Shown: in pieces, positions 27,701 to 56,235 of the stretch | How positions within the stretch are numbered: position 1 is the first letter of the stretch | How the letters are laid out: each line of letters opens with the position of its first letter | Virus record (IMG/VR): IMGVR_UViG_3300032288_003949 | Span: 1 to 64,000 of that record | Source of the DNA: a virus | DNA length: 64,000 nt | Reading direction: 5' to 3' (one strand) | Position numbers and translations under genes: made by a program | The notes under the pieces: model-generated | The model's database searches: none | Told to the model about the DNA's origin: nothing | Seen by the model: only the letters and a program-made list of their open reading frames with translations

Positions 27701-30052
27701 TGGCGGGATAACGATTGGCAGGTCTGCGCCCTTGTCGATGTGTTCGCGCAGTCGTTCTAGCCATGCGCCAGCGCGGGGCTGCTTACTCTCCACCTGCAAG
27801 AACTTTCGTGCCTTTATGCTGAGCTCTGGGAACCGAAAGACCATCGACCGCTTGGGATCGACCTTTACCTGCGGAACGATGGCGATCTCCCTTTCCGACC
27901 CGAACATCCCAAGCCAGTTATTGACCGTCGTTGCCAGAACGATGTGGCGAATTGACAGGGCTGTCGCCACGATGGTGTTTCCGAAGCCGAGAGAAGCATC
28001 GATGTTGAACGACTGGCTAAGGCCGGAGAAGAGCCATCGATCCTTGAACAGCTTTTTCCACCACGCCACATTGTCGTTCGATCCGTGGAAGACCGTCAAG
28101 CTCGGCGAGCGGGTGCGGTTGTAAAGATCCCATGCGTAGAGATCTCGGAGCCGTCCTTGGAGATCCATGCCTTTAGAGCGTTGCTCAAGTGCGCTCTTGC
28201 CACTCTCCCCCGTGCCGGAGAAGCTCGCAAGGGAAAGGGTTCCACCCGATGAGCCCCCGTATTGGCTGTTGTGGGCTTGCTTAACCATGTTGACGATCTC
28301 GCTGTCGAAGTCAGCTTCGATTTCCTTGACCATCTGCTTTATCGGCGCTCCACTCTTCCACTTCCCGAAGCGCTGCATCACATCGATGTAGTGCATCTGC
28401 TCAATGAGCCCGAACTGTTCCCATTGGTCTTCGCTTAGATTGGAGTCCTTGGGCAGCGCCAGCGTGGGATCGTGGGTGCTGGATTCGACATAGGGCTCCA
28501 CCATGCGGACATTGCTCGTTTCGTGCATGGTCTGCTTCCCGCCTGCGACGAGCTTCTTGGGCTTTGCGGGTTTCACGCCGCCAAGTTCGGTCGGTTTGCC
28601 AGGGGTGTCTTTCGGGTCGATTACTCGGACTTCGACCTTCTTCTTGTCGCCGCTTGCTTCGTCCAGCACGACTTTGCCCTGCAGGATGTGAGCTACTTCC
28701 CATTCCTGTCCATCAAGTGTGAGCAGGTCGCCGACCCTTACTTTCTGCCCCGCTTTGCCCGTCATGGTGCTGGGGTAGATCGGGTGCTCTGCGTCTTCGG
28801 TAGCTGTCCAGCCGCCAGCAGGCGACGCCATTCCGGATGGCATGTCCTCCAGCTCAATCGTGCCAATCTGTTGCTCTAACTTATCGATGAATAGAGGCAG
28901 GATCGATTCGATGCCTTCGTTATGTGTAACTGGGATATTGAAGCTCATGAGCTTTCCCCAGTCCCGCCATCTGCTTACGGGATTTTGAAAGTAGTCACGA
29001 ATTTCTTCAGCCGTTGCTTTCAGTGTTATCGATTTAGCGGCTGGACTTGTCTGGAGGAACTCGCGCTCCTTGGCAATCAGTTTCAGAAGCGATTGCCTTA
29101 GACCCTCCGGACCGTCGTAACCCTCCGCTTCTATGTACTGCATAAGAACTGGAAACTTTTGGGCTTCCGTAAAATCTAGGCTCTCCACGAGCTTCATCGT
29201 GGCTGTCGCGGTAGCGGCTTCATCAACATAGAGCTCCAGTTCAAGATCGCGCCGCTCTAGTGTGCCGGTAGCCACCTGAGAGTCTTTATGAAACCAGACT
29301 TCCTCCTCGTTTTGCCGATCTGTTTGCGTAATTAGCGTTAGGGGCTTTCCATAGCCATCTGAGTCCACTCCAATTTCAACAAAGCTCAGGGCGACTATGG
29401 GGCTCTCGCTCCAGCTACGAATCGTTTCTGCGTCTGGTGGCGGCGTTCCGACGGGTTGCCCGCGAAACAAAGTCGGGCTGGGTGCTTTTTGCCGCTGAAG
29501 TTCGAAGTAGAGAGCGGCGGCTGTGCTGTGGGGGTCAAGGCTAGGGTCTATGGCCTCGCCCGCCCTTGCCGTTCCAAAGAAGAAGTGTTCTCCCTCATCC
29601 GCAAGCACCCAGTGCGCCAAGCCAGCTATGACACGAGCTTCATGTAGCTCGTCGGGCGTATAGGCTTTTGCCGCTGGTGATGCCATTGCCTTTTGCATTT
29701 CTTGGCGTATGGTCGTCCGTCTAGAGTTGCGACGGGCGGCATCTTCCTTCGTCATGGCGGGGGTTGCCACACTTCTGGGTAGGCCGCTGGGTGAAGCCAT
29801 AGGCCCAAGCGGAGCTGGGGATGCCATGCCGCGTGGTCTGTCTGGGGTTTCGATGAACCTGCCGCGTCGGTTGCGCGGGTGCAGCATGGGATCGAAGTCG
29901 GCGGTGAACAGGCTCCTGATCACCCGTCCAGCGCGGTTCAGAACGCGACCTTCTTGCAGGTCTATTTCTTCTTGCTCAGTAGCGAGCAGACCAGTAGGGT
30001 CATCTGGTCGCAGGTCTTCCGGCGGCGTAGTGGGTTCTAGACGGATCGGCAC
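24707..30052 (-). CDS. 1781-aa modular protein with ADP-ribosyltransferase-like domains and MASP linkers
   Basis: HPRNRRGRF; four MASP; LFRG..SWSES..A..F; VFHG..SQSF..A..FG..SEREI; repeated small beta modules. Confidence 0.8.
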   Translation of the reverse strand: MPIRLEPTTPPEDLRPDDPTGLLATEQEEIDLQEGRVLNRAGRVIRSLFTADFDPMLHPRNRRGRFIETPDRPRGMASPAPLGPMASPSGLPRSVATPAMTKEDAARRNSRRTTIRQEMQKAMASPAAKAYTPDELHEARVIAGLAHWVLADEGEHFFFGTARAGEAIDPSLDPHSTAAALYFELQRQKAPSPTLFRGQPVGTPPPDAETIRSWSESPIVALSFVEIGVDSDGYGKPLTLITQTDRQNEEEVWFHKDSQVATGTLERRDLELELYVDEAATATATMKLVESLDFTEAQKFPVLMQYIEAEGYDGPEGLRQSLLKLIAKEREFLQTSPAAKSITLKATAEEIRDYFQNPVSRWRDWGKLMSFNIPVTHNEGIESILPLFIDKLEQQIGTIELEDMPSGMASPAGGWTATEDAEHPIYPSTMTGKAGQKVRVGDLLTLDGQEWEVAHILQGKVVLDEASGDKKKVEVRVIDPKDTPGKPTELGGVKPAKPKKLVAGGKQTMHETSNVRMVEPYVESSTHDPTLALPKDSNLSEDQWEQFGLIEQMHYIDVMQRFGKWKSGAPIKQMVKEIEADFDSEIVNMVKQAHNSQYGGSSGGTLSLASFSGTGESGKSALEQRSKGMDLQGRLRDLYAWDLYNRTRSPSLTVFHGSNDNVAWWKKLFKDRWLFSGLSQSFNIDASLGFGNTIVATALSIRHIVLATTVNNWLGMFGSEREIAIVPQVKVDPKRSMVFRFPELSIKARKFLQVESKQPRAGAWLERLREHIDKGADLPIVIPPEIIMSQKSLKPPPPAALEAFADYKDIPEIKGEPYTPEQLKAKHGDLPFKHVDEKGRPEPRVAAEAGVKAGDFMIGMKGTLYWIGPDKTNNFGLRYHKIVKGSDGKLMFDGDSYAFEGDGANTYYFLKGNVKPLKDETDWDPAAWQFAAEDPILIRNMQVGDKFKVDGTPYELSQVPASMSISDDRLTVRDLETGIQGTINADFATTRLVPATGYVAGQTLQPAKGMTLAYQGKKHTITSVKKDGIVSVKPAGGTVVQLAPDDPALKDLFDPSAWLPSGETTLQNLSIGEMFHGGSGKTVRPYKVIGKDGNKIEWQNMDNGKKGSSPKTKKVAVLKPQGGTPGEADHKSGAPVNTEPPPPSDMPVTKAETAGKLISQEVAEQVGDVLLKVPAAELKEGTVIQHKRASDGMVVLYQVKTVDPDEAIIEQVSVEDYTGSGPVGKGSVSPENAMVVDEFKLTKNETLGDLLTGKTVDNAFQELAEQDKVFFYDTKLAATAWKQPEAVTTQVPTLTNEEAKAAAGIMANAPAKNLKVGVVFYDDSAKQFYKVQENNEGQVRILVSEAPEAAPITEITLGETEKLFGANPPPTGLIIYDLLDENEVAQEKVTVADEISDLPQAEIEPYKSAYGSGGKYKHDKIGEMTVGTIFQDKTGKLWSVQVSGANAVITDGVSNYAVNGDLRGKRLNEGLIQDAPVDAFALLNPPPAPEPVPHPYQEQKEVVPETPTSMIMDSMTPNQGMTVTDIADKTNLESNAYYIYKGELFMIGDADYEGELRRYLVEPDGEMVPFDTSFSTWHSWETVPDSVFVENEVLEEPTASETEPSGGELLKNVVDSTQTGYAEVEFEAGGKTFSVIAIGQKNNTGQQIYLKDMTTGETKNIPLTDDLTLDGVAREFSEPPPTATSEAVTTPGLGPNFTAEEVAAAPKIELNFYKSAYGSGGKYKHEKVGDLPDGADFTVKGDKSKWVKVKSMTGGWVLVWKLHGSASELGLVKANGRVRAV

Positions 30053-30072: not shown

Positions 30073-30297
30073 TCAGCGCATCGTTCGAAGGAAGTGAGCG
30101 TGTGCCAATTCGTTAGCTGGCACCCTTCCGCAGACTCCCTTGAAGGCCTTCTCTAGCTCGCTGCGCGTGTTAGCGCCCTGTCGCTGCTGGTGCTGGTAAT
30201 AGCGCTTCCACTTCCCGCGCACCACGATATGGCGGGTTGCCCGCTTCTGCTGGTGCTTTGTCAGCGCCCGCTGCCCGCGCTTGCGTAGGATGCTCAC
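30073..30297 (-). CDS. small basic hypothetical protein
   Basis: GTGA overlap with upstream ORF. Confidence 0.5.
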   Translation of the reverse strand: MSILRKRGQRALTKHQQKRATRHIVVRGKWKRYYQHQQRQGANTRSELEKAFKGVCGRVPANELAHAHFLRTMR

Positions 30298-30533
30298 TCT
30301 GGACCGTCCATCAGGCCAGCGTAGAGACTGTCAAACCAAGCTCGCTGCCATTGCAGGATCATCTTGTCGGCCAGCCGCTCTCCGAACTCCTGTGCCAGAT
30401 AGTCATGAAACTGGGCTGCCATCATCGCCCACTGTTTCAGCGATTCTGCGTGTGCGTCGAACCTGCTCTGCGAGAACGCAAGCTCGTCGGCGAGATCGTC
30501 TGGGAGCTTCGGCGGTTCGGGCATCTCGTCCAT
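30294..30533 (-). CDS. hypothetical protein
   Basis: 79-aa ORF after the MuF gene. Confidence 0.6.
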   Translation of the reverse strand: MDEMPEPPKLPDDLADELAFSQSRFDAHAESLKQWAMMAAQFHDYLAQEFGERLADKMILQWQRAWFDSLYAGLMDGPE

Positions 30534-30542
30534 ACAGAAAGA

Positions 30543-33500
30543 CTAGCGCGGGACGGAGACGGCTTGGAGTATGACCGCTCCGTTTTCCTGCAGCACAGCT
30601 TGTATCTGGAGTTTCGTGTTTCGCCCCATCAGCAGAGCACCATCTGGCGCGTCCAAGCCTTCGGCTGCAGGCATCACCACGCTGGATCCAGCTGGTATCT
30701 GGACCTTGACCGCCACAACTCCTGGAGTCGGGGCGAAGTCGGTTTGCAGCGGCAGGTAGGACTTATCGGCCATCCACTCGCCTTCCAAGTCTTCGGGATT
30801 CTCTAGCGGTTCTGGCAGGACTGCCCATGCCGTCATGTCTTCGTCGGTCTTCGACATGGGACTACGGAAAAGCTCGTCTAGCGTTGCGATGGTGTCAGCT
30901 ATTTCTTCTGTTGCTTCTTCTTTCGGGGCTCCTGAGCGGAGATGATCGTCGATTGCCGTTCGGTCGTCTCCTAGGTAGGCTTCCATAGCAAGGTCTTCTT
31001 CCGGTAGTGATGGGAACTCACGCTGTTCGAAGTAGTCGGTGATCTCGTCGCCCTGCAGCGGTTCTGGTATGCCTTCTTCGCCACGCGAGAAGCGCTCTAG
31101 CCATGCCACACGCTCTTTCAGGCTGGTGCGGATCCGCTCGCGCATCGCTTCGTCCTTGAATGGCGCTGCGTCCACGAGTTCGTCAATTCGTTCTGGCGTA
31201 AGGCGTAGTGCCGCGTCTTTTGCTCCGGCTTGCATGCCAGCTTCGGTGATTTCCATGCGGCCATTGGCCTGACCGCGCCCGCTTTGCATCGTCCAGAGCT
31301 CTGTCGGGACCGATCCGAAGCTCTTGCGCTCGCCTTGGGCGCGGAACTCCAGGGTTCCGCCTTGGTCTAGGCGGACAGGCTGGTCGCCGTTCCACAGGAT
31401 GTTGTCTTGTGTCAGACCGATGACATCCCAGTTAGCCAGCAGCGCATCTGCCACGAATCCTTCTGCCAGATCTGCGTTGGGTTCGCTCCAGCGCCTTTGT
31501 TCACCGTCTACCAGCGGGTAGGTGACGGCGATCTGGTCGCCATATGTCGGATGGCGGCTGATTCCTACTCCTGCGTTAGAGACTGTGACTCCCAGATCCC
31601 TATAGATGGCGTTTGCCAACAGTTCGGTTGCTACGCGGTCTGAGTCGCCGCGATATGCCTTGACGAGCCACTTGTTGCCGTCAGGATCCTCTGCGATCCG
31701 TGCGTCGTTGGATCCACCTGCGCCCTTTATGTCCTGAAGTTCGACATCCGTGTATTCGGGTATGCCTTCGACTGGCTCTGGTGGAGCTTCCAGCATTGAG
31801 CGACCTAGGTCGTCTTCTTTGCCCTTGTTGCCCTTGAGCAGGTTGAAGATGTTAGGCGAAGCCATAGGCGAAGCCATCTCTACTGGCGAAGCCATGCTGC
31901 CAGTTCCGAGCAGCCTTTGTGCTCGTTGCACCATTTCATCGACCCGCTGATTCCAGACTTCGCGGGAGGGGCTATCTACTGGGATGATGTTTTTGAGTTC
32001 GTCATGGAAATCTGTATCTGTCGCGATGCGAGTTACCGCTTCTCGTTGACTATCGCTGAGGGTGGCAGGAAGCGACTGCACAAGGGTCGCTCCCGTTCCG
32101 TCTGTGTAACCAAGCTCGCGCTCGCGGATTTTTTCGTATCTTTCGCCTGAACCAAAGCTTAGATCGTGATCGATGGCGTAGAAAACGGTATTGGGAATAG
32201 TTTCGTACTGTTTGTGCACGAGCAGGTTACCCATGTGCCGATCTGTATTGCCAATGATGTCGTCAAGAATAGCGAGATTTTGGAACGCTGGCGAGTTCCG
32301 TGTTTCGTCTTCTTGCAAGTCAAGCACTCCGCTGCCCGCCACGGTTGGCAGTCTTTCCCCGTTTACCTTCAGTTCTTGTTGGATTAGTTCTGGGATCCGC
32401 ACTTGGTCAAGCGATATTTCCCGCTCTTGCTGCCCCTCCAGGCTTCTGAAGGTGGCAAGGTTGTTGTCCCAGTCAATTTCCTGTAGGTAGCCGCGCTCGC
32501 CACCCACATCTACCACCACATTGCGAGTTCTTGGGTTCGTCGGGTTATCTGCCAACCGCTGCTGATTGCCTTCATCTACCTTCTTTAGTGCCGCAAGTGA
32601 CTCTTCGTTGCCGACGAGACGGGTTGCGACACTTGCCACTGGCACTCCAAGGATATCTGCGACCTTTTCGGCGGCTAGGTTGGGGGCTTCATCATGGCCG
32701 TCAACTGTAATTTTCGCGTTAGGTGATCCCCAGTCGCGGTTGTTGTAGAAGGGTCTAACCAAGACATCCGTGTCACCAACTTTCGCTGCTGTGACGGAAG
32801 CGACATCGTAAAAACTTCCCGACTGATATTGCACGGCGATGTCGACGACTCGGTCGGTCAGTTCTTGCTCTGAAATGTTCATCTTTGGCGTTTGGTTCGG
32901 TGACTTCATGCTTTCGACCGCTTGCTTAAACTTCGTGCGCTCTCGCCGGTAGACCGGCGAAGCCATCGCCTGCTCAAACCTTGCCTTATCAGCTGCTAGG
33001 ACATCGTCCATCACGCCTGCTTCTTCTTGGATCTTTCGAATCATGCGGTCGCGATAGCCAGGTTTTCCGCGTTCCTCGGCGGACACTTCGATGACGATGC
33101 GCTGCTCATCGATTGAGTCGGGGCTAAGGATGATTTCTTTTTCCATCAAAGCAATGCTGCGGGTGGTGGGGTTCATCGGTGACTTCTCTTTGTCCATCGC
33201 TTCCACGCGCTTGGCCACATCTATCCCCTTGCCGTTCTGTGTCACATAGACCGTGACCGTAGCGGATCCGTCTGAGTAACCGTGCGTTCCAAAGTGCAGC
33301 CCTTGACCTGGATCTGCCGACCATCCGCGATATCCAGACTCACTTGGCGCTGGCAAGAAGCGGCTCTGGCCCCTGAAAAGAACCTGTCCATCAAAGCTCT
33401 CTCCGTTATTTTCGATCTCCCATGCGAGCGCATCAAGTGCGTCCTGATACTCCGGCTTGGCCTTGGCGCTGCCTACCCAAGCCTGAATACCCGTGTCGAC

Positions 33501-36500
33501 CAGCTCATCGTGTTTCTGCGCGGGTTGGTAGGTGGCGGGCGACCGCATCGCGTCGCCGAGTTCTGCCCTTGCCCGCTCGGTCTGAAGTTCCCGATCTGTC
33601 GGTCTTCCGATGCCCGTTGGTAGTTCGCCGGTTCTCCATCCCCACCTTGGGCTGGTGCGCCGCAGGGTTTCGGCCACGCGGGGGTATCGTTCTACGAGAA
33701 GCTCTGGGAGAAGCACATGAACAGCGAAGTCGACGCGCCTGCTCAGGCCGCAGGGAGAGACTCCGCGCCCGCCGACAACCAGTCTGCTGATCGGGGCGTG
33801 TTCAGCGTCGTCGGCGTGGCTTGTGAGCTTATCCATGTCGATGTCATAGGGGTCTATGCCAATTCCGTTGAGTGCGCCTCTCAGGAAGTTTTCTACCGGC
33901 CCTTGTCCGTCCTTGAGCGCGTCCAGCGACATGCCGCTTGCCACTTCACTCAGCATGGCTTCGTCGCTTCGCAGCCTTGGGCCAACGGGCGATGCCATCG
34001 CACCCTCTGGGCTCTCGTAGAAGTTCTGCAGCGGCTGTGCTGCTACCGCCTGTGCCATGCTCTTGCCGAAGCCGCGATTCGCTTTTTCGACCAGCTCCAT
34101 CCGTTTGTCAAGGGCGTTCTGACGCATCTTCTTGGCAGCAGCGATCAGTTCTTGTGGCCAGCCGAGTTTCCCAGCGGCTTCGTCGATGTCCGGCAGGTCT
34201 TTTTCCAGTGTCCCGCTGAAGGCGCTTCCGAAGGTCGTTTCATCGAAGCGGTATGCCATGTGCTGCCCTAGCTGGGCGAAAAGGTCACCTTCATAGGCCC
34301 GCTTTGGTTCGATGACGGCTGGGCTGGCCATGCCTGTTGCTACCAGCGCCGTTTCAGTGTCTTTCGTGTCCGGCTTGCCGAAGTAGTCGTCCATTGACTC
34401 CGAGAGCACATCGATGGCGCGTTGAAGCGCCTCTCGCATGTTCAGGGTTTCGTCTCCTGCTGGACCTTCGCCAGCCTTAGCGCGTATTTCCTGCAGCTTG
34501 GACAGGGTCTGCTCCATGTCTTCACGACTCGCGTTCTTAATGGCTTTGAGGGGCCCGACGCCGCCGCCGTAATAGTTGTTCCAGGCATGGGATGCGAACC
34601 CGTCAAATTCCGTGTTGTTGGGATCGTCCTGTTGTAACACCGCTGCGATGACTGCAGTGGGCCTCATGAGTCCTTCGGAGTCGTAAAGGGTGTCTTCGTC
34701 TGGATCTGCTGGCACGAAATCTTGGTCAAGCGATGATGCCAGCGTGTCTTGTTCCAGGGTCAGCTGTTCGTCCGACACCTTTTGCTCAGGCTTGTAGCCG
34801 CCGTCTTCTAGGGCTTCTCGGACCTTTGCTCGCAGCCATGTCTCTGCGTTGTCTTCATACTTAACTCCGTCCTTGGTCGGGATCGGACCTTCATCGCCTG
34901 TAGCCAGCAAGATGTCGATGCGCCGATATCCTTCTAGCGAGCCGCCGTCCATAATGAACTCGGCTTCATCCTCGTATTCGTTGACGACTGGATCTGCAAG
35001 CGAGTAGTCTCCCGTTGCCGATGCCCGCGCTTCCATCTCGGTGCGTATCCAGCGACGCTCAGCGGTATTGTAAGCGCCATCTAGATCAGCGTTAGTGTCG
35101 TGGAGTATTTCTTCGACTGCTCCCATCCCATCGGCTTGGAACATTTGCACGAGAGCATCCGCGATCTCCTTGGCGCGGCTGGAGCCAGACTGAGCAGACA
35201 ATATCCAATCCTCTCGTTCTGGGCCCTCTGGCGGGACTTCGATACCGAGTCGTTCCGCCAAGTAAACAATCTCAAAGTCATCAAGATCCGGAAGAGAAAC
35301 ATCGTATCCCTTGGGCGAGGTGATGAATTCCCGAATGATTTCTGCCTGATTTTCATTCCCTATCTTGGATCGCATTTCTTCGTAGCCAGCTTCCCTCGCC
35401 ATCTCTGCCTGTTCAAGCAGATCCTTTATCTCAACGCCCTTGCCGCCCGTGATCTCGTAGAGGCTGATTATCGCCTTGTCTCCAGGGTCCAGGCCGTCCA
35501 CCGCTCCAGCCACGCTAGTTTTTCTTATTCCCGTGCCATCGCGTTTTCTTACTTCGGGGCCGCTGCGGGCAAACTCAAGGGCTGTTTCAAGGCGCTCGCT
35601 CCAGCCACGGATTCGGTTGCCCTTGGGTTCATCGTGCTGGACGGCTTGGCCTCGCCAAAGCAGCCCTTCTTCTGTCTTGTAGGTATCGATCTTCCCGTTA
35701 TTGACTTCCCAGAGCAGGGCATTGACTTCTTCTTCGCTTGAGTTCTTAAGCGCCATGTCTGGGTTTTCCTGCCATCTCTGGACTATCGCTGCCGCCCGTC
35801 GAAGGTGCTCTGGGTCATCTCTGCTCCCTTCGTAGGATGCAGGCGATGCCATTGCCTTGAATTCGTCCAAGGCTGCGTCCGAGGCGAGCTGCCTTGCCAA
35901 GCTCTTTCGATCCTTTGGATCGCCGTCCATTGGGCTTGCCATGCTGCGCGGCCCAACGCGCTGTTCTATGCCTGCGCTTTCAGCATTAGCCAGCCTGTTC
36001 GGTGTGGCATACCGCTTACGAGTTCCATCTGGGCGCTCAATCAGGGCGCTGCCCTTGTCGCCCCTGAACACGACGGATCCGTCGGCGAGTTCCAGCTCAT
36101 TTCCAGGCTGCAGGGCTTGAACCTTCCGGATCAGGGCTCGCTTGGGGTCTGAGTAGCGCCTTGGGTCGTATCCGAGCGGCCCAGATACCTTTTTCGGCGT
36201 AACGCGGTCTTCGCCGCCTAGGATTTTCTCAGTTGTTGTCTTTGGGGCCTTGCGGCTGCGGGTATCGGCCTTTGCCCGCCTGATGTCTGTTACCGCAGAG
36301 TCCTGCCAGCGCTTGACTTGGCCCGTTTGCATGCGAACATCGGCGCTGAAGCCGTTATTGTCGACCGCCACGACCTTTTCCAGAGTGCCGACTTGGATGT
36401 CGCCGTTCTTGGCCTTTATCCGCACCTTGTCGCCTTCGCGGAGCCTGCCGGTGACCTTCTTGCCCCGCAGCGTCTTCTTTCGGGCGCTTCCGACCTTCTT

Positions 36501-38522
36501 AACATCTGCCATGTTCGGGTATCGGATGCTGCGGTCTACGACATTTCCGTTCGCGTCCTTTATCGGCGCTTCGACTGCGATCTGGACTTCTCCCGCTTCG
36601 TCATAGCCCACATCGATGACCTTGCCTGAGAAGGGTTCGGTTCTGCCCCCGACTCTGACTGCATCGCCCTTGCTCCATTCCATCTCTGGAAGCTCAATCT
36701 CAGGTGTGATCACCGCAGCGCCAGGACCACCTGGGTTTACCATGAAGTCAGTTTCCATTTCCCCCTTTGGGCCGCTGCCAAGCTGCTGCAGCATGCCGCG
36801 CACAATGTCTTGGGCTCTCGTTTGGCTTATGCCTTCGGCTTTGGCGACATATTTCGCAAGCTCAGCGATTCGATCTTCAGTTTTCGTGTAGGACATTGAG
36901 AGCCTTTCAAGCAGCTCTTTCCGATCCTCCACAGGCACTTGACCTGTTTCCAGCACTCGCAGGAGTGCGGCTCTCTGCGGCCTGTATGTGCCTTGAATCC
37001 ACTGATCGTCTGGGTTCGCGGCTACATGCCGCAGCAGGTCATAGTCGCCGTCAAGGGCTGCCTGCTCAATCGTGACCATGTGCGCGATTTCTTCTGTGAG
37101 CGCCTCTTCTAGTGCGAACGCAGTCCTATTAGTGGGATCGTTGTATTCCGCCATGCTGATTGAGCTCACAGCGTGGGTCATTTCGTGGTTAATCGTTCGC
37201 AGCGCGTTGTAGTAGTCCGACAGTTCGTTCGGTGTCGGTTCCTGTCCGGCTGCCCGCAGGTCACGCACTCGTTCGATGCTGGCTTGCTCCCATTCCCCGA
37301 TGAAGATGAGCGACGCGCCGTCTTCGCCTAGGTGTTCGCCACCAACACTTGGCAGGTTTGGTTTCTTCTTGTCCCTTTTCTTCGTTCCCCACACGACTGG
37401 CGTAATTTCGCCGCCATACTGCTTCGCAAGCTCAGTCAGTCTGCTTTGAGCGCGTTCCACGGCGGCTGGTGCGCCCCCGTATTGTGCGGCGGCTGTTGCC
37501 ATCTTCGCGAGCGGCCCCTTTCCAGCAGGACTTTTCATCCCATCCTCTAGGTCGGGTGCTGTGATCGTTCTCTGGTTGCCGCGTCCCACCACATTCGGTG
37601 CGTCTGCACCCATGAGCCGTCGCAGGATCTCGGCGAGGCTGACGCGGGGGGCGAAGCCACCACGCTTAGGCATGAACCTTCCGCCCCAAATCGTTCCCTT
37701 CGGGTAGCGTCGGTTCCATTGGAGTTCCATAAGATCTGTCTCGTCGTAGACCTTGGCTTCTGTCAGGTTGTATCTCGCTCGGATCTCTTGAGCACGGGCT
37801 TCGGCATCGGTTGTGTCTGGCAGGGCGGCACCCATGTATCCCATACCGATGGCTTCGTCCCTCGTGAGCAGGTCACATCTGCATCCCGTATGCACGGGCG
37901 GATGTGTCACATCCAGAACGCTCCACGGCCACCATCCGACGGCTGCCATCGCTACGCAGTCCGGCGTGTGCTCCTTGACATTCGGGCTCATGATCCAGTA
38001 GGCCCCATCTGGGCTGAGTTCGCGGACCAGTTCCCTGCGGAGCGTGGCTTGGACGCGGGCAGCCACAGCGTCGTCGTGCTGTGCCATGTATCGTTCTTCA
38101 CGGTCGAAGACTGCATCTACGGCAGCGAGCGGTAGTGGCTTCTGCAGGGCTTCGGGGATGTCGCGCAGGAGTCGCTCGCGCATCTTGTCGATGAAGGCCG
38201 CTTCCCTATCGGCTTCTTTCGCTGCTTCTTCAGCAATCCGCTGATCTGTGACTTCTTCTTCGGTGAACTCTGGTCTTACCACCTGTTCGATCCATCCCGT
38301 GCCGCGCCGGAATGCGACAACGGCAGCCATCAGCGCAGCTATGAGCGATGCGGTTCTGGCCGACTCAGCGCCCGCTTGCGCCAACTGAGCTTCGCCGGTT
38401 GTCTGACCCTTGTCCTTGCGGTTTGCCAGATTTCCGGCGGCTGCTGCCGCGAGTATGGCTTCTGTGTCGTCCTTGGCGCGGTCAATGGCCTTGCGGCTTC
38501 TCTTACTTGCGGACGATGGCAT
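30543..38522 (-). CDS. MuF (SPP1 gp7-like) minor head protein fused to zincin, ART-like, two kinase-like and degenerate VIP2-like domains
   Basis: HTPDC..HPPVHTGCRC (MuF); NHEMTH..LEEALTE; WRGQ/FRGQ..GWS..ExE; GNTDRHMGN..AIDH; GGSN..WLVK..NWDVIG..DN..RLDQGG; 11 M-x-S-P; downstream of portal. Confidence 0.88.
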   Translation of the reverse strand: MPSSASKRSRKAIDRAKDDTEAILAAAAAGNLANRKDKGQTTGEAQLAQAGAESARTASLIAALMAAVVAFRRGTGWIEQVVRPEFTEEEVTDQRIAEEAAKEADREAAFIDKMRERLLRDIPEALQKPLPLAAVDAVFDREERYMAQHDDAVAARVQATLRRELVRELSPDGAYWIMSPNVKEHTPDCVAMAAVGWWPWSVLDVTHPPVHTGCRCDLLTRDEAIGMGYMGAALPDTTDAEARAQEIRARYNLTEAKVYDETDLMELQWNRRYPKGTIWGGRFMPKRGGFAPRVSLAEILRRLMGADAPNVVGRGNQRTITAPDLEDGMKSPAGKGPLAKMATAAAQYGGAPAAVERAQSRLTELAKQYGGEITPVVWGTKKRDKKKPNLPSVGGEHLGEDGASLIFIGEWEQASIERVRDLRAAGQEPTPNELSDYYNALRTINHEMTHAVSSISMAEYNDPTNRTAFALEEALTEEIAHMVTIEQAALDGDYDLLRHVAANPDDQWIQGTYRPQRAALLRVLETGQVPVEDRKELLERLSMSYTKTEDRIAELAKYVAKAEGISQTRAQDIVRGMLQQLGSGPKGEMETDFMVNPGGPGAAVITPEIELPEMEWSKGDAVRVGGRTEPFSGKVIDVGYDEAGEVQIAVEAPIKDANGNVVDRSIRYPNMADVKKVGSARKKTLRGKKVTGRLREGDKVRIKAKNGDIQVGTLEKVVAVDNNGFSADVRMQTGQVKRWQDSAVTDIRRAKADTRSRKAPKTTTEKILGGEDRVTPKKVSGPLGYDPRRYSDPKRALIRKVQALQPGNELELADGSVVFRGDKGSALIERPDGTRKRYATPNRLANAESAGIEQRVGPRSMASPMDGDPKDRKSLARQLASDAALDEFKAMASPASYEGSRDDPEHLRRAAAIVQRWQENPDMALKNSSEEEVNALLWEVNNGKIDTYKTEEGLLWRGQAVQHDEPKGNRIRGWSERLETALEFARSGPEVRKRDGTGIRKTSVAGAVDGLDPGDKAIISLYEITGGKGVEIKDLLEQAEMAREAGYEEMRSKIGNENQAEIIREFITSPKGYDVSLPDLDDFEIVYLAERLGIEVPPEGPEREDWILSAQSGSSRAKEIADALVQMFQADGMGAVEEILHDTNADLDGAYNTAERRWIRTEMEARASATGDYSLADPVVNEYEDEAEFIMDGGSLEGYRRIDILLATGDEGPIPTKDGVKYEDNAETWLRAKVREALEDGGYKPEQKVSDEQLTLEQDTLASSLDQDFVPADPDEDTLYDSEGLMRPTAVIAAVLQQDDPNNTEFDGFASHAWNNYYGGGVGPLKAIKNASREDMEQTLSKLQEIRAKAGEGPAGDETLNMREALQRAIDVLSESMDDYFGKPDTKDTETALVATGMASPAVIEPKRAYEGDLFAQLGQHMAYRFDETTFGSAFSGTLEKDLPDIDEAAGKLGWPQELIAAAKKMRQNALDKRMELVEKANRGFGKSMAQAVAAQPLQNFYESPEGAMASPVGPRLRSDEAMLSEVASGMSLDALKDGQGPVENFLRGALNGIGIDPYDIDMDKLTSHADDAEHAPISRLVVGGRGVSPCGLSRRVDFAVHVLLPELLVERYPRVAETLRRTSPRWGWRTGELPTGIGRPTDRELQTERARAELGDAMRSPATYQPAQKHDELVDTGIQAWVGSAKAKPEYQDALDALAWEIENNGESFDGQVLFRGQSRFLPAPSESGYRGWSADPGQGLHFGTHGYSDGSATVTVYVTQNGKGIDVAKRVEAMDKEKSPMNPTTRSIALMEKEIILSPDSIDEQRIVIEVSAEERGKPGYRDRMIRKIQEEAGVMDDVLAADKARFEQAMASPVYRRERTKFKQAVESMKSPNQTPKMNISEQELTDRVVDIAVQYQSGSFYDVASVTAAKVGDTDVLVRPFYNNRDWGSPNAKITVDGHDEAPNLAAEKVADILGVPVASVATRLVGNEESLAALKKVDEGNQQRLADNPTNPRTRNVVVDVGGERGYLQEIDWDNNLATFRSLEGQQEREISLDQVRIPELIQQELKVNGERLPTVAGSGVLDLQEDETRNSPAFQNLAILDDIIGNTDRHMGNLLVHKQYETIPNTVFYAIDHDLSFGSGERYEKIRERELGYTDGTGATLVQSLPATLSDSQREAVTRIATDTDFHDELKNIIPVDSPSREVWNQRVDEMVQRAQRLLGTGSMASPVEMASPMASPNIFNLLKGNKGKEDDLGRSMLEAPPEPVEGIPEYTDVELQDIKGAGGSNDARIAEDPDGNKWLVKAYRGDSDRVATELLANAIYRDLGVTVSNAGVGISRHPTYGDQIAVTYPLVDGEQRRWSEPNADLAEGFVADALLANWDVIGLTQDNILWNGDQPVRLDQGGTLEFRAQGERKSFGSVPTELWTMQSGRGQANGRMEITEAGMQAGAKDAALRLTPERIDELVDAAPFKDEAMRERIRTSLKERVAWLERFSRGEEGIPEPLQGDEITDYFEQREFPSLPEEDLAMEAYLGDDRTAIDDHLRSGAPKEEATEEIADTIATLDELFRSPMSKTDEDMTAWAVLPEPLENPEDLEGEWMADKSYLPLQTDFAPTPGVVAVKVQIPAGSSVVMPAAEGLDAPDGALLMGRNTKLQIQAVLQENGAVILQAVSVPR

Positions 38523-40701: not shown

Positions 40702-40985
40702 GTTCGGCGGGCAAAACAATCTGGCTCTGCGTTGTCACGGAGGAATCCTTCAAGGACGGCGAGCAGTGGGTGCAGCTACTCGGCGAGTATTACGGCAAGG
40801 ATGCTTACGACGCGATGCGCTGGGCTGTCAAGGGGCTGGAGCAGGATCTGATCGACCCTGTTGACGGTCGCGAGATCGTGTTCAAGACCCGCGAAGAGCC
40901 TGCCGGTTATCTCGGAATCGGTGTCAGGGAAGTCGCAGAGTATGTCGCTGAGGAGTTGCGGCCTGATATCAAGGACGAGGACTAG
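40698..40985 (+). CDS. hypothetical protein
   Basis: ATGA overlap, MSSAGK. Confidence 0.6.
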   Translation: MSSAGKTIWLCVVTEESFKDGEQWVQLLGEYYGKDAYDAMRWAVKGLEQDLIDPVDGREIVFKTREEPAGYLGIGVREVAEYVAEELRPDIKDED

Positions 40986-43027
40986 GAGTAGTCGTCGCGG
41001 ATTGGGTCGGCTGCGTCGCGGAGGGCCTTCTTTGCCTTCTTGCGGCGCTTGCGTAGCTGCTCTCTCGCCTCTGGTGACAACCGCTTGGCGGCTCCTGTCT
41101 CTTGCGGCAGGTCAGCGCGGGTTGCCGCTTCCATAGCCTGCTCAGGTGGCGGGGATCCCGTCGGTGCCGCTTCTGCTTCTCCTGTCGGGATCGGTGCGGG
41201 CGGCACGGGCGGGTTCTCAGGCGGCGGGGCTTCTTCTCCCATTCCCATCCCACCCTGCTGGGCCTGCAGTGCCGCCATCGCCGGATCTTCATAACCTGGC
41301 GGGTAGACCTTCTCAACAACCTGTGCGGGGTCTTCCATTTCCAGTCCTTCGCCCAGTGCTACGGCCAGAAGTGTGCGGCTGAGCTCTAGGTTCGTGCCGT
41401 TCGGGTCGAAGGTTCTAGCGATTGTGGAGACAGAGTTCACGAGGTCGCTCATCATTCGCCTGAGCGGGTTCGGAAGGCCGAAGTCGTAGCTCAGATCGCG
41501 CTTCCGTTCTTCTAGCTCGGCTTCTTCAGACTTCGGGGCTTCGGGCGCTCCGAGTTCTGTGGCAGCGTCCATCTCGGCTTCTTGGACAGGTGTCAGCGGG
41601 GTTCCGCCGACCGATTCCATGCCTGTAGCCTCTGGCGGTGCCTCTGAGGTTCCTTCCTTTTCCATCTCCTTCTGCTTCTCGGCCCATTCTTCGTCGTCTA
41701 GCACTTCGCCGATGCGCCCTGCCTTGACCGCTTCTTCGATTACGCGGTCGATGAACCATCTGAATAGCTGTTCGAAGACTTCCTGTCTGCTTTCGACGGC
41801 CTTGAGCACGGGAAGCTCCATGCTGGTCGCGGTAGCGAGGTTCGCTGATCCGATGTCTCCGAGATAGTGCTGCGGGAAGTGAGTTGCGGCGCTGATCTGA
41901 CTCCGAATCATCTGGCCGTCGACATTCGCTCCGGCGGATCCCGAGTCCAGCTTGAAGGATTCGTGTTCTACGCCTTCATTCTCGGTGATGACCGATGCGC
42001 TGCGCGGGCCGATCAGATAGTCCTCGCCCGATGTGTCGACGGTGCGGCCTAGCTCTCCCCGCTTGGACAACACCTGTGTGGCGAGTTTCCGCACCTGATT
42101 CGGCGTTCCCTTAATCTTCCGTTTCATGACAAACGCTGCCGCTGCCTTGGCCGCGTCGACCCGCGACTCCATCAGCGAATTGAATGCATTGGACCAGCGT
42201 AGGACTCGGTGCATGGTCGGGTGGCCGAATGCCATCTCGCCAGTCTTGTTAATGGCGATGTGGTAGACCCGACCCTTGCCCATCTTGTTGGCGGGCGGCT
42301 TCATACCGCGTCCATTGGGCTCGTTGCTCCAGTGCTGGTAGTAGAGGATCCGCTCGCCGCGAAGTCTGTCCAGATCTGCGTCGTAGGCTGGGACATCGTT
42401 CTGGTAGTCCCACTTAATGTGTTTCCGGCGGCTCACATAGTAGATGATCCTGCGCCGGTTCTCTGGGTCGCGCACCACATTCTCCACGGAGTCGTGGTCA
42501 AGCATGCCGAGCTTTACGCGCCCGTCTTGCCCTGTGAACATGAGCACGAAGAGGTTGCTCTGGAGCGATAGGTCGGTTCCGAGTGCCATCTGCGCTGGGT
42601 AGCTGGTCAGAATCAGCTGATTGTCTTCGTCATTCCACGCTTCGTCGATGATCTCCTGAACCTTGGGATCCCTAGCCTTCGGCGATGGCACTCCGCGACC
42701 GAGGGTGAAGTCGTTCATGAGATCGACGGCTGCTCCTAGCTGCGGATCCTGCTGCCATGCGACGCGGGACTGCTGCACGAGCTTCCGGCGCTGCACGGCC
42801 TGCATGTCCTGCTCGTTTCCGCCGAGGTAGTCAAGGCTCTGCCACGCCAGCAGGTCAAGCTCCTTGCGGAGCGTCCGGCGTTCTATAGCTTCGGCTTCAA
42901 GCAGGTCAAGCTTCTCGTCTTCGACTACCCTCGCGCCCGAGCGCGTTGCCGCTGCTTCGGCTATCCGACGGAAGATGCCGCCGCTCTCAGAGCTTTCGGC
43001 TCCTAGATCTGTCGGATCATCTGACAA
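40982..43027 (-). CDS. portal protein
   Basis: 681 aa between TerL and MuF; DFTLGRG, PQHYLGD..SANLATA.SME.P..K....Q pattern. Confidence 0.88.
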   Translation of the reverse strand: MSDDPTDLGAESSESGGIFRRIAEAAATRSGARVVEDEKLDLLEAEAIERRTLRKELDLLAWQSLDYLGGNEQDMQAVQRRKLVQQSRVAWQQDPQLGAAVDLMNDFTLGRGVPSPKARDPKVQEIIDEAWNDEDNQLILTSYPAQMALGTDLSLQSNLFVLMFTGQDGRVKLGMLDHDSVENVVRDPENRRRIIYYVSRRKHIKWDYQNDVPAYDADLDRLRGERILYYQHWSNEPNGRGMKPPANKMGKGRVYHIAINKTGEMAFGHPTMHRVLRWSNAFNSLMESRVDAAKAAAAFVMKRKIKGTPNQVRKLATQVLSKRGELGRTVDTSGEDYLIGPRSASVITENEGVEHESFKLDSGSAGANVDGQMIRSQISAATHFPQHYLGDIGSANLATATSMELPVLKAVESRQEVFEQLFRWFIDRVIEEAVKAGRIGEVLDDEEWAEKQKEMEKEGTSEAPPEATGMESVGGTPLTPVQEAEMDAATELGAPEAPKSEEAELEERKRDLSYDFGLPNPLRRMMSDLVNSVSTIARTFDPNGTNLELSRTLLAVALGEGLEMEDPAQVVEKVYPPGYEDPAMAALQAQQGGMGMGEEAPPPENPPVPPAPIPTGEAEAAPTGSPPPEQAMEAATRADLPQETGAAKRLSPEAREQLRKRRKKAKKALRDAADPIRDDYS

Positions 43028-47156: not shown

Positions 47157-47504
47157 ATGAAGGTGAAAGTACGGCAGTCCGATGGTCAGGTGGTCGATGT
47201 GGATGTCGATTCCCTGCCCGTCGTCAATCCCATTCCCGACTCGGAGCTTGACACTTTTGAGCTCCAGCTTCTTCGGATGTGGGAGCGACACCTTGTGGGA
47301 AGGGTGCGGTTTGTGGAGCGCCCGAAGGAGTTGAAGACGGGTTACTCGGCGAAGGTGGTCTGCGACGACCCCGACACCGAGCTTTTCCTGCCCGCTGTAT
47401 TCCATGCGCGGATTGACGAGCGCACCAAGCGGATCCGTCTGCGGATGCGGCATGCCTGCCGGATCTCTGGCGACGAGGGCGTGTTCGGAGGCACCAATGG
47501 CTAG
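47157..47504 (+). CDS. hypothetical protein
   Basis: SD GAGGAGG. Confidence 0.65.
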   Translation: MKVKVRQSDGQVVDVDVDSLPVVNPIPDSELDTFELQLLRMWERHLVGRVRFVERPKELKTGYSAKVVCDDPDTELFLPAVFHARIDERTKRIRLRMRHACRISGDEGVFGGTNG

Positions 47505-48237
47505 TCCTAAGACTCGCTGGGAGTGTCCGAACGGCTGCGGCGCGGTCATGGGGCCGCGTCGCCCCCGCAAGGATGATGTGCGGCGCTACTGCCTGCCCTG
47601 CTCTGAGGAGTCCGGTAGGCTGGTGCAGCGCGTCGCCCCTGTGGTGGAGAAGGAGCGCGAGGCGGCTGCGGAGCGGGCTGCCAAGAAGCGGGCTGCGCGG
47701 GCTGCGCGGATCCGCGAGCGGAAGAACAAGTACACGGCGAGTGGCCCTAGCCCTGTCATGGTGTTTCCGGATGCCGCTGGCGTTGAGCACTCCGTCAACA
47801 TCCCCAAGGAGGTGCTGCGTGTTGCCAAGCGCATGAAGATCCACAAGCGGCTTGGCAGCGTTCAGGTCATTCGGCGCACTCGCGGTCGGGGGCCCAACGG
47901 TATCGGCGGTCTGTGCTACCCGCATGGCGCTCCGAACGGGCCTGCGGGCTGGCATGTCGGCGAGGGCCGCGCTCACATCACCATCTCGGTGTATCGAGGA
48001 GCGAGCTACGAGCGGTTGTGCGCCCTGATTGCCCACGAGGTCGCGCACATCCGGCAGTGCCACCACAAGAAGGCGTTCCGGATAGAGATGGCGCGGACGA
48101 TCTCTGCGGCATATCCAGGCCGCTGCGGTCGGTTGCCTGTCACGACTTCGTCGAGTGCCATGCAGACGGAGGCAGAAGAGCGGATGCGGGCTTGGGCTGT
48201 TGCTCAGGTCGCTGATCAAATCGAACAGGAGGTGTGA
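47497..48237 (+). CDS. Zn-ribbon plus zincin-like metallopeptidase (HExxH)
   Basis: CPNGC..YCLPC; IAHEVAH..HKKAF; SD GGAGG; starts MASPK. Confidence 0.7.
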   Translation: MASPKTRWECPNGCGAVMGPRRPRKDDVRRYCLPCSEESGRLVQRVAPVVEKEREAAAERAAKKRAARAARIRERKNKYTASGPSPVMVFPDAAGVEHSVNIPKEVLRVAKRMKIHKRLGSVQVIRRTRGRGPNGIGGLCYPHGAPNGPAGWHVGEGRAHITISVYRGASYERLCALIAHEVAHIRQCHHKKAFRIEMARTISAAYPGRCGRLPVTTSSSAMQTEAEERMRAWAVAQVADQIEQEV

Positions 48238-52650: not shown

Positions 52651-54375
52651 CTAGTAGTCCAGCGGGTCGCGGCTAAAGCCAGGGTCGTAGGTTTCGACGA
52701 AGCTCGCGTCTGCGGTCAGGTTCACCACATCTAGCTGGCTCGGCTCCCAGTCGTAGCGGTCTTGGAAATCGTATGTCTCGCCTTCCAGCGCGGTGTCGAC
52801 GCTCTGCTGGAATAGCCAGCACTGCAGGGCCAGCGTGTCGTAGGCTTCGGCGAAGGCATAGTCGTCTGCCCTGACGCTCTGGTATTCGACGGTATGCCCG
52901 AATGCCGTTTCGACGGTCACGCGGCTCATCGCTTGTAGCTGGTCGGTGTAGCCCTTCGGCTTCTCTGTTGGCAGCAGGTTGCGCTGTTGCCTTATCGCGT
53001 CGAATGTGGCATCTAGGATCGCGGTGCGCTTCACGCCTGCGGTTCTCATGTCTGGCTTCGGGTCGAATACCGTCTGGCTGCGGCTGGTGATGAAGTGGGC
53101 GAGGTAGACGCGGCCAGGGAATCGTTCAGCGAATGCTCGGCTCAGGCGTTCTTCGGGGGCGTGGTCGATGCATGCCATGTTCACGCCATACCGCTGCATT
53201 AGCTCTACGAGCATCCCGAAATCGTCCACTTCGCCGATCCACAGGGCCCGCTTGCGGGGTAGCCCTTCGGTCGGCAGGGTGTAGGCGCTTATGCGGACAT
53301 TCAGGGCCCTTACGCTTGCGACATCCACGCCCATCGTCACCAGATCGCACTGCGGCACTTCCATGGCTTCCAGCGGTATGTCGTCGCGGCTGGCTGCGGC
53401 GATGGCTTCATCGCTTAGGCGGTTATCGTCCGGCGCATAGGCTTCCGCGAGGTCTTTGTTGTAGTGGACGGTGATCTCGTTCGGGTTCGTCTTGTTGTGG
53501 GCTTCGATGATCGGTCGCAGGTCTAGGTTCGGGACCACTAGGCGTGGGATGTGGTAGCCCCGTATGTCTCGGTCGGTGTGTTCGGCTACCCATTCGCCCT
53601 TCGCGGGGTTCAGCACCTTGTGGCACTTGGCGCAGACCAGCTCGGCGGTGTCGGTGTCGACATTGGCGGTGTAGGACAGCGTCTGGTGGTCGCCGCAGCC
53701 TTCGCATTTCACCATCCATTGGCGCTGGTCGCTTCGCTCATACAGCGCGTCAATACCGAATCCTGGAATGCTGGGGACGCCTACCCGTCGGATGAGCCCG
53801 TTCTGCGAGCCCGATATTCGGCGTTCAGCGTCGGGGATATTCTCCTGCCGCAGCGTGTCATATTCGTCGAGGCATAGGACATCCGCGTCGACCGCGTCCA
53901 GATCGTCTTTCGATTCGCTTCCACGGGCGTAAAGCCAGCCGAGCCCGATCTGTTTCAGGCCTTTGTTGTTCACATAGCCCTGCGGGATCCGCTCACGGAG
54001 GTAGGGCGAGCCCATGATGGCGGCCTTTATCCGTGCGTCGGCGAAGTCATACATCTGCTGGCGCTTCGGGAAGATATACAAGGCGTTCTTCCTGCCCGTG
54101 TCAGCGTGGTAGAGGGCCCATCTCAGGAGGTAGGTGCTCACGCCTACCTGCGTCGCCTTCTTTATCACGATCTCGCGGTCATCGGCCCCTGATTGGTCGT
54201 ATAGCTCGCGCTGGAAAGGGAATCGGTCGAAGTCCAGGGTTCCGGCCTTCGGCTCCGGCACCTGTAGGGCCCAATCGTGGAAGCTCTGCTTCTGGCCGGT
54301 CAGCTCCGCATATTTCTGCCGTAGCAGCTCGCCAAATGCGTCTGCCGGTGCCATGTTCGCTGTCGGGTCTTCCAT
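52651..54375 (-). CDS. terL: terminase large subunit (lambda GpA-like)
   Basis: KATQVGVS Walker A variant, LCLDEYD Walker B, CxxC..CxxC, MGVDV nuclease motif. Confidence 0.92.
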   Translation of the reverse strand: MEDPTANMAPADAFGELLRQKYAELTGQKQSFHDWALQVPEPKAGTLDFDRFPFQRELYDQSGADDREIVIKKATQVGVSTYLLRWALYHADTGRKNALYIFPKRQQMYDFADARIKAAIMGSPYLRERIPQGYVNNKGLKQIGLGWLYARGSESKDDLDAVDADVLCLDEYDTLRQENIPDAERRISGSQNGLIRRVGVPSIPGFGIDALYERSDQRQWMVKCEGCGDHQTLSYTANVDTDTAELVCAKCHKVLNPAKGEWVAEHTDRDIRGYHIPRLVVPNLDLRPIIEAHNKTNPNEITVHYNKDLAEAYAPDDNRLSDEAIAAASRDDIPLEAMEVPQCDLVTMGVDVASVRALNVRISAYTLPTEGLPRKRALWIGEVDDFGMLVELMQRYGVNMACIDHAPEERLSRAFAERFPGRVYLAHFITSRSQTVFDPKPDMRTAGVKRTAILDATFDAIRQQRNLLPTEKPKGYTDQLQAMSRVTVETAFGHTVEYQSVRADDYAFAEAYDTLALQCWLFQQSVDTALEGETYDFQDRYDWEPSQLDVVNLTADASFVETYDPGFSRDPLDY

Positions 54376-55514: not shown

Positions 55515-55961
55515 TTAGGGCTTACGGGCCTGACATAGCGGGTTATTCTTGTTCCGGATCTCAGCTGCCGCAGCTTCTTGCTCAAAGGGGCTCTCGTCGT
55601 AGCCGTCAGGCTTGCGGGTTTCACGCCTAGAGGTGCTCAGGCTTTCGCTCAGCGACGCTTCATAGGCATCGCAGAACAGGGCCCCAGACCTGTAGCGTTC
55701 CCGCTGGAGAGCGTGGGTCAGCTCATGCCACAGCGTCTTACCCGCGTCTTCCGTGCTCAGGTAGGTGCTCATGGATATCTGATGGGCGCGAGTTGGGCTG
55801 CGGCGCTGGAAGCACAGGCCCAGATACTGGCCACTGGTGCGCTTCTGTGCGGTGATGCGGATCTTCACGGGGTGTTTTAGCCCCATGGCCTTACATGCGC
55901 GTGACAGGGCTTCACGGTCGATGTCCCATGCCCGCTTGTGTTTCTTCTTAGGCCCCGTCAT
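55515..55961 (-). CDS. zincin-like metallopeptidase (HExxH)
   Basis: TLWHELTHALQ...Y..SPFEQEA. Confidence 0.75.
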   Translation of the reverse strand: MTGPKKKHKRAWDIDREALSRACKAMGLKHPVKIRITAQKRTSGQYLGLCFQRRSPTRAHQISMSTYLSTEDAGKTLWHELTHALQRERYRSGALFCDAYEASLSESLSTSRRETRKPDGYDESPFEQEAAAAEIRNKNNPLCQARKP

Positions 55962-56235
55962 GGTCGTGACCACGCGAGCGGTAGTAGTTTTTGTTCCAGA
56001 GATACGGGGTTTCCCACGGCGACCGGCTGTCACGCCGGTAGCGCACGACCGTGCCGGTCAGCAGGCGCTCATGGCCGCAGCGACAGATCGCATGAGCGTC
56101 GCCCAGCTCCGTGATGGACAGCTTCCATTCGTGCCGGTGCGCGTCAGTGGTCAAACCGCTTCCCCCCCAAAAAGGGACGGGACACAAGCATACCACATTG
56201 AGCGACAGAATGTAGCGCGGCCTGCATGTTCCCGT

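Follow-up and report, generated by a model that had tools for sequence, protein, structure and literature searches.

A giant phage polyvalent protein with an M-x-S-P word at its module boundaries, a probable head-cargo polyprotein

Described head-cargo proteins and ORF A

In phage T4, gp21 trims Alt and the internal proteins, head-packaged enzymes (including an R-S-E ADP-ribosyltransferase, ART) that are cut at a short word and injected. We propose a comparable route for the product of ORF A, a giant open reading frame (ORF) in the 64,000-nucleotide stretch analysed here (the window), which is the first 64 kb of the 80,925-bp IMG/VR virus record IMGVR_UViG_3300032288_003949 (CheckV completeness 68%). 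The T4 proteins are separate gene products with one cut near the N-terminus at L/I-x-E, whereas ORF A holds many enzymes on one chain and has the word M/Q-x-S/T-P at every joint.

30543..38522, minus strand: ORF A, 2,659 amino acids (aa), an intact frame with an ATG start and no internal stop; probable polyvalent head-cargo polyprotein

By the definition of Iyer et al. 2017 (PMC5512222), ORF A counts among the phage-type polyvalent proteins. Like the proteins described in the available part of that paper, it combines many unrelated enzyme domains with a probable MuF-type anchor, a zincin hub, ARTs and kinase-like modules, and its gene lies among virion genes; injection of such proteins with the DNA was predicted there. 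Unlike that class, the modules of ORF A escape almost all current Pfam models, the chain ends in a second kinase-like module joined to a dead ART tail, and its ARTs that appear intact are of the R, S, E-x-E and not the H-Y-D (Tox-ART-HYD2) type, a difference at the level of the module and not of the class. Zincin domains were predicted to process polyvalent proteins in the same part of the paper, which names neither the sites nor any cleavage-site word and describes no processing system of the kind proposed here; ORF A carries an explicit linker word. The presence of M-x-S-P at the joints makes the 2017 prediction directly testable, and the injected cargo of such phages is relevant to host take-over and counter-defence.

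MuF polymorphic toxins (Jamet et al. 2017, PMC5576092) have an N-terminal MuF-type domain encoded near the portal gene, a probable counterpart of which ORF A has, and ART and metallopeptidase domains are among their fused activities, as in ORF A; their delivery with the DNA has been proposed. They carry one C-terminal toxin and an immunity gene, whereas ORF A has about ten modules, a dead C-terminus and no recognisable immunity gene. An earlier account of the window made from its letters (the sequence-only reading) had taken the single C-terminal enzyme as the norm for MuF fusions and called the arsenal of ORF A unusually large. That benchmark ignores polyvalent proteins, for which PMC5512222 gives 2-15 domains including MuF, zincin, ART and kinase; the arsenal is large relative to MuF toxins and has precedent among polyvalent proteins. 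A further giant polyvalent protein with a metallopeptidase, phi24B gp47 (2,811 aa, bioRxiv 10.64898/2026.04.10.717836), was found in virions by proteomics and proposed as ejection cargo. It differs from ORF A in its set of LPD domains and in that no linker word has been reported for it, and we found no sequence similarity between the two.

A linker word at module boundaries

ORF A held 11 copies of M-x-S-P, eight of which were MASP compared with 0.02 expected, and the wider pattern [MQ]x[ST]P occurred 11 times compared with 1.0 in shuffled sequences (maximum 5 over 200 shuffles). Every copy was situated between segments that behave as domains, that is, at module boundaries. The sequence-only reading had omitted this word, in the light of which ORF A is probably a polyprotein rather than one giant enzyme. 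Two other giant genes in the window carry it as well, and the words of ORF C mostly bound modules of 70-160 aa; the window's remaining reading frames contained only three further M-x-SP words, one of them in the large terminase gene.

24707-30052, minus strand: ORF B, a giant neighbour of 1,781 aa with four MASP words and a third ART-family module
7306-18666, minus strand: ORF C, a giant of 3,786 aa with 24 M-x-S-P words
37527..37538, minus strand: first linker word of ORF A, MKSP (aa 329-332), inside a low-confidence stretch (aa 250-347) of the structural model
35853..35945, minus strand: two copies of MASP, at aa 861 and aa 891 (spacing 30 residues), at joints that are also marked in relatives
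31854..31895, minus strand: triple linker MASPVEMASPMASP (aa 2210-2223), between kinase 1 and kinase 2

The words fell in segments of low predicted local distance difference test (pLDDT) score: aa 329 lies within the stretch given above, and residues 1-4 of the model of the second ART module were also low. Their codons varied in ORF A, with Ser written as AGC/AGT or TCN (AGC and TCG both being used), and we therefore conclude that selection acts on the peptide. A pure DNA repeat was rejected as the cause in ORF A since the codons vary, and internal start codons were ruled out as the cause of the invariant Met, as relatives have Gln at that position.

Six modular relatives of 2,391-2,839 aa were recovered with a word-index search, with 39-47% identity across 24-40% of the query, and later searches added P0030 (5,304 aa), P0038 (3,065 aa), the IMG/VR locus L002, source of P0003, and L003, a partial contig from JGI, giving a size range of 2,391-5,304 aa. 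The N-terminal ~860 residues were common to all relatives and the C-terminal ~440 residues to most, while the middle varied, with extra ART copies or ParB-like, Zeta-toxin kinase, 2H phosphoesterase or GNAT domains. Relatives bore the word at homologous joints in one dialect per protein: M-x-S-P in P0005-8 and P0039, MATPT in P0003/4, and G-Q-A-S-P in L003, P0030 (about 23 copies) and P0038. The dialect changes at all sites of a protein together, a switch that from M to Q costs 2-3 base changes per site, and this points to a single co-evolving partner that reads the words, most simply a protease; the side chains of M and Q, both unbranched and alike in length, would suit the specificity pocket of such an enzyme. 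P0039 (2,052 aa) had G-M-x-S-P words together with Peptidase_Mx, lethal-factor-like and GNAT domains and was without the MuF-like N-terminus; its row was left out of the N-terminal alignment, where it has no homology.

Direct support exists for the folds and families of the domains, for the statistics of the motif, for the conserved placing of the word and for its change of dialect. The word is most likely the protease site of a head-packaged cargo polyprotein, as judged from sequence, and we give a probability of roughly 55% to the reading that ORF A is a polyvalent protein acting as such cargo, cut at the words and injected in pieces. What we infer from these data is that the chain is packaged, cut and ejected, which protease cuts it and what the pieces target. 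The MuF-like N-terminus (the portal gene lies about 2.4 kb upstream) would take the chain into the procapsid, and cleavage would follow at each module boundary, at the G/x-M-x-S-P words. The cutter would most likely be ORF A's own gluzincin, favoured because it has the only HExxH among the three giant proteins and is the most conserved enzyme of the family; the alternative is a head-maturation protease. Cutting would release about ten pieces for ejection along with the DNA, namely two R-S-ExE ARTs, a PI3/4K-like kinase, a HipA-like kinase with the dead C3/VIP2-type domain attached, SH3/KOW barrels and two unassigned modules, and once in the host cell the enzymes may act early in infection by modifying its proteins or nucleic acids. 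Co-injection, as put forward in the sequence-only reading, is a sensible interpretation because ORF A lies in the head module. More tentatively, a phage protease that is dedicated to these sites and co-evolves with them, probably the gluzincin linked to MuF, could read G-[M/Q]-x-[S/T]-P as its cleavage code, in which case the three giant genes would be polyproteins yielding roughly 40 head-packaged proteins or enzymes, with lineage-specific dialects.

Several points weigh against a cut cargo polyprotein. No cut has been observed at any of the words, and the N4 virion RNA polymerase, which also has a zincin, is packaged uncut according to PMC5512222. ORFs B and C carry the word and have no HExxH, so the zincin would have to act on them in trans. 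The word of ORF C is nearly identical as DNA, reading ATGGCATCGCC in most copies, and in P0006 and P0007 the first word after MuF lacks the Pro. The anchor had no match to PF04233 (Phage_Mu_F) at E≤10 in the phage's own record, none by hmmscan and none in PHROGs, and the kinase fold of the second kinase-like module is assigned from sequence. The N4 precedent and the shared DNA word of ORF C, which would fit a recombination joint, favour an explanation in which the chain is packaged and active uncut and the words serve as flexible spacers and in-frame recombination joints for module swapping; the mosaic build of the relatives, with shared N- and C-terminal frameworks and differing middle modules, agrees with this. 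However, the codons of ORF A differ, an invariant M/Q, S/T and P would be unnecessary in a spacer, and a dialect that changes throughout a protein at once suggests that one partner reads every site. We consider this explanation unlikely as a full account; roles in cleavage and as recombination joints may both hold.

Modules of ORF A

Several unrelated catalytic domains lie on the one chain: a zincin, two ARTs, a PI3/4K-like kinase, a kinase-like module and a dead ART domain. The sequence-only reading had proposed such a multi-enzyme chain, and the sequence is consistent with several modules apparently able to work next to a catalytically dead ART domain. Every motif that it quoted was found in place in the intact 2,659-aa frame and none of its assignments was refuted. 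It had named failure to predict ART, kinase or zincin folds as the outcome that would count against it; AlphaFold2 (AF2) recovered the folds of the zincin and of the second ART module, while the kinases stand on their motifs and profile matches. Its domain inventory was largely right, and the interesting part lies in the probable polyprotein code. Searches of Pfam, PHROGs and NCBIfam with the whole of ORF A and with segments of it gave matches limited to PF00454, phrog_3162 and TIGR03843, all in kinase 1; no other Pfam model, those of polyvalent-protein domains included, matched ORF A. A PDB sequence search with the whole protein found nothing, as did a related-locus search using the ORF A protein alone and a search of genome contigs.

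37773..38342, minus strand: MuF-like domain (aa ~61-250) with invariant H185, C189, H211, C214 and C216; AF2 pLDDT 76-89
37635..37739, minus strand: basic peptide LMELQWNRRYPKGTIWGGRFMPKRGGFAPR (aa 262-296), with invariant columns in 10 relatives
36708..37490, minus strand: gluzincin metallopeptidase domain (aa ~345-605), with HEMTH (aa 446-450) and EEALTEE
36267..36692, minus strand: two SH3/KOW/Sm-like beta-barrels (aa 611-681 and 683-752), from structural matches
35961..36149, minus strand: small YkuJ-like alpha/beta domain (aa 792-854), matching 2ffg_B at Z 7.4 with a root-mean-square deviation (rmsd) of 1.6 Å over 63 residues; pLDDT about 88-92

The N-terminal region (aa 61-860) was modelled with AF2 from a collinear alignment of 10 sequences (mean pLDDT 72), giving confident domains and three low-confidence stretches (aa 250-347, 583-613 and 759-770), and the model was compared, without bias towards any fold, with 48,161 PDB representatives by VIA-align. 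We regard the first domain as quite probably MuF-like because of its signature motif (HPPVHTGCRC, aa 207-216), its profile match and its location near the portal gene. Alignment with hhalign against a set of eight established MuF proteins, Mu gp30 and SPP1 gp7 among them, gave P 0.0019 at a probability of only 14%, and the best local alignment paired PPVHTGCRC with PPNGWNCRC, exactly on the MuF signature. The fold search with the 800-residue model was filled by zincin, barrel and helical matches and did not reach the MuF part, and a near-length search with that part returned one irrelevant match. The MuF call of the sequence-only reading is thus upheld in its motif and setting and, with PF04233 unmatched, as a probable assignment only. 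Between this domain and the first linker, LMELQWNRRYPKGTIWGGRFMPKRGGFAPR lies inside a predicted-disordered segment (pLDDT <50 over aa 250-347) and is preceded by an L-x-E; it may be a docking or targeting peptide.

The zincin, which had been recognised from HEMTH and downstream Glu residues, took a gluzincin-type fold in the model. Its best matches were to M1 gluzincins: tricorn factor F3 at Z 10.7 (rmsd 4.1 Å over 188 residues) and LTA4 hydrolase at Z 9.6, with thermolysin at Z 6.7. Residues H446, E447, H450, E472, E473 and E477 (HExxH and the downstream EExxxE) were conserved in the relatives that cover the region, in which MuF always precedes the zincin, and the best BFVD match was SprT-like. 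The SH3-like repeats that had been proposed to follow it were borne out by fold, the barrel at aa 611-681 matching the NusG KOW domain at Z 7.8 (rmsd 1.6 Å over 56 residues) and that at aa 683-752 the Sm-like protein SmF at Z 6.6.

34761..35852, minus strand: ART module 1 (ART1, aa 891-1254) with R957, S975 and E1185/E1187, and an insertion of ~150 aa just before ExE
33999..34331, minus strand: unassigned module (aa 1398-1508) with MASP at both flanks
33549..33998, minus strand: conserved module (aa 1509-1658) with invariant H, C, H and a TSPRWG motif; function unassigned
32967..33548, minus strand: ART module 2 (ART2, aa 1659-1852) with R1717, S1735 and E1794/E1796
28832..29686, minus strand: third ART-family module, in ORF B (aa 123-407), with MASP on both sides and FRGQ, RSWS and NEEE visible

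Both ART modules were confirmed as predicted R-S-ExE ADP-ribosyltransferases, ART2 by the fold of its model and ART1 by the family profile, in agreement with the sequence-only reading, which had also noticed the long insertion in ART1. A profile built without sequences of the window recovered ART1 (aa 900-1254, E 1.7e-36), ART2 and, by hmmsearch, the copy in ORF B (aa 123-245, E 1.6e-10). The WRGQ, GWSE and EAEF motifs of ART1 lie within aa 956-1188 and FRGQ of ART2 at aa 1716-1719; in an alignment of ART1, ART2 and five modules of P0003, a W, R-G, S, G and E-x-E were invariant. The AF2 model of ART2, from 12 diverse sequences, had a pLDDT of 83.6 and a predicted template modelling score (pTM) of 0.78, and its R59, S77, E136 and E138, invariant in all 12, fell on predicted strands 57-61 (strand 1), 74-77 (strand 2) and 138-141 (strand 5). 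Compared with the 48,161 PDB chains (VIA-wide), nearly all of the top 50 matches had the ART fold, with R-S-E enzymes at the head of the list: the Listeria ART toxin 8za7 (Z 6.0), ART2.2 (6.0), Vis (5.9), CPILE-a (5.8), C3bot2 (5.7) and VIP2 (5.7), with ExoS also present. These Z scores are middling, and it is the near-purity of the list that carries the argument for the predicted fold. Foldseek against the PDB gave nothing better than E 0.025 for ART2; its top rows were nonetheless ARTs (TreTu/TreX, KptA, CARDS, PltA, pertussis S1, ExoS and Vis), and in BFVD the best matches were phage proteins that included the T4-type ADP-ribosylases ModA and ModB. A PDB sequence search with the ART profile found nothing, and this profile showed no similarity to that of the C-terminal ART domain of ORF A.

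A HMMER scan of 1.84 billion representative proteins with the ART profile returned only 17 matches, which were the giant relatives and a few stand-alone proteins of 340-406 aa; none carried a Pfam ART annotation and one had a weak Tpt1/KptA match. The window phage has three copies (two in ORF A, one in ORF B) and one relative has five or six. This is an undescribed family of R-S-ExE ARTs, and R-S-E ARTs thus do occur in polyvalent proteins. As a separate observation, ART2 had a weak structural match (Z 3.2) to 9k3a_B, a chain of the cyanophage A4 pre-ejectosome, which hints that ejectosome proteins elsewhere may hold ART-like domains. Of the two modules between the ARTs, that at aa 1509-1658 was conserved over ~120 aa across six relatives and had no Pfam, PHROG or significant PDB match; that at aa 1398-1508 had no match in Pfam, PHROGs or NCBIfam and no equivalent among the relatives.

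31896..32909, minus strand: kinase 1 (aa 1872-2209), PI3/PI4-kinase-like, with DRHMGN (aa 2094-2099) and IDHD
31038..31853, minus strand: kinase-like module 2 (kinase 2, aa 2224-~2495), with G-loop AGGSNG, Lys, Glu, NWD..DN and DQGG (GGSN to DQGG: aa 2269-2390)
30546..30965, minus strand: C-terminal ART domain of C3/VIP2 type that lacks the catalytic R, STS and E

Kinase 1 just reached the threshold of PF00454 (27.6 bits with a cut-off of 27.1, E 3.4e-6), a marginal match confined to the catalytic loop, and it also matched phrog_3162 and, at E 3e-4, TIGR03843. A three-sequence profile gave weak PDB matches to PI4K and FAM20 at the same loop, and DRHMGN and IDHD were conserved in three homologues. 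The motifs on which the sequence-only reading had based a PI3/4K-HipA-type kinase are present, with marginal family support. For kinase 2, which it had also called from motifs, we found 20 homologues in which the Gly-rich loop, Lys, Glu and NWD..DN were nearly invariant and DQGG invariant. Sub-threshold matches to HipA_2 or HipA_C occurred in five of the 20 (best E 0.017), and across the set no other family recurred besides PF03496 on the C-terminal domain. Alignment with E. coli HipA by hhalign was weak (P 0.04, in the alpha-C region), no PDB sequence match was found, and kinase 2 showed no similarity to kinase 1. A kinase fold, HipA-like, is probable for kinase 2.

The C-terminal domain had been described as VIP2-shaped and lacking the R-S-ExE residues, and its family profile tied it to the C3/VIP2 ARTs, matching C3stau2 at E 6e-7 and also Lmo0066, CdtA, Certhrax, C3larvin, iota Ia and ExoS. 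Eight of the 20 homologues matched PF03496, two of them above its cut-off of 23.4 bits (P0012 and P0014, at 33.5 and 34.4 bits); the copy in the window, searched alone, had no PF03496 match. A second, inactive ART-fold domain is also found in VIP2 and iota toxins. Unlike the C3, VIP2 and iota ARTs, every aligned member of this family has the catalytic Arg and the first Ser of STS replaced, and while some relatives keep QxE or E (QPE, GE), the window copy has P-D-G-A there and so lacks the catalytic Glu as well. Wherever the domain occurs, kinase 2 accompanies it, stand-alone proteins included: kinase 2 by itself forms proteins of 240-260 aa, and with the degenerate ART proteins of 460-670 aa (P0011-P0023). 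Kinase 2 and the degenerate ART are thus a mobile unit, and the ART domain may, at most as a reasonable inference, act as a partner for kinase 2; the sequence-only reading had suggested that it may be a decoy or binder.

The head module and neighbouring genes

ORF A belongs to a head module on the minus strand. The nearest upstream structural gene, also on the minus strand, is the portal gene, and ~2.4 kb that contains plus-strand ORFs separates the two.

451..1512, minus strand: phage capsid protein (PF25209, E 8e-38)
1533..1910, minus strand: decoration protein of the head module
1910..3115, minus strand: scaffold-like gene of 401 aa that adjoins the decoration and capsid genes, with an N-terminal domain of ~190 aa and a long acidic coiled-coil tail
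40982..43027, minus strand, as ORF A: portal (phrog_10963, E 4e-32)
47404..48237, plus strand: small ORF with HExxH and a sub-threshold M48-like Pfam match; alternative candidate protease
52651..54375, minus strand, as ORF A: large terminase (TerL)
55515..56033, minus strand: small ORF with HExxH and a sub-threshold SprT-like Pfam match; alternative candidate protease

These genes bear on a further alternative, that the words are cut by a head-maturation protease or another phage or host protease and that the zincin is itself an injected effector. The trimming of Alt and internal proteins by gp21 in T4 offers a model, ORFs B and C carry the word without a zincin, and the window contains the scaffold-like gene and the two small sub-threshold zincins. 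However, Pfam, PHROGs and the PDB gave no protease or scaffold match for the scaffold-like gene, and the capsid and portal proteins are without the M-x-SP word, though head proteases usually trim them. No enzyme of the family, moreover, is as well conserved as the zincin, which comes after MuF in every case, and we therefore regard cutting by a different protease as rather improbable and retain cutting by ORF A's own gluzincin as the preferred route.

30294..30533, minus strand: small acidic ORF of 79 aa directly downstream of ORF A; membership in the system unproven
30073..30297, minus strand: small, very basic ORF of 74 aa; membership in the system unproven

The sequence-only reading had pointed to these two ORFs as sitting where immunity genes would be expected, which would make ORF A a MuF polymorphic toxin for bacterial competition. 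Temperate phages are known to encode MuF toxins that end in an ART or a peptidase and have an immunity gene next to them (PMC5576092), and the two ORFs do adjoin ORF A downstream. The evidence from the locus runs the other way: neither ORF matched a family in any library searched, both sit between two giant cargo genes and downstream of a C-terminal domain without catalytic residues, the active modules are internal rather than C-terminal, and no integrase or lysogeny gene was present among the proteins scanned. The immunity assignment has no support, and we consider a toxin-immunity function highly improbable.

Searches of INPHARED (50,697 phage records; megablast and tblastn) found nothing resembling this phage in DNA or protein; the hosts of such phages are probably actinobacterial. 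Replication-type genes (DNA ligase, single-stranded DNA-binding protein, Nudix and DUF932) are scattered in the head module. ORF C has two PG_binding_1 domains near aa 430-510, and the three giant genes sum to 8,226 codons, about 30% of the 81-kb record.

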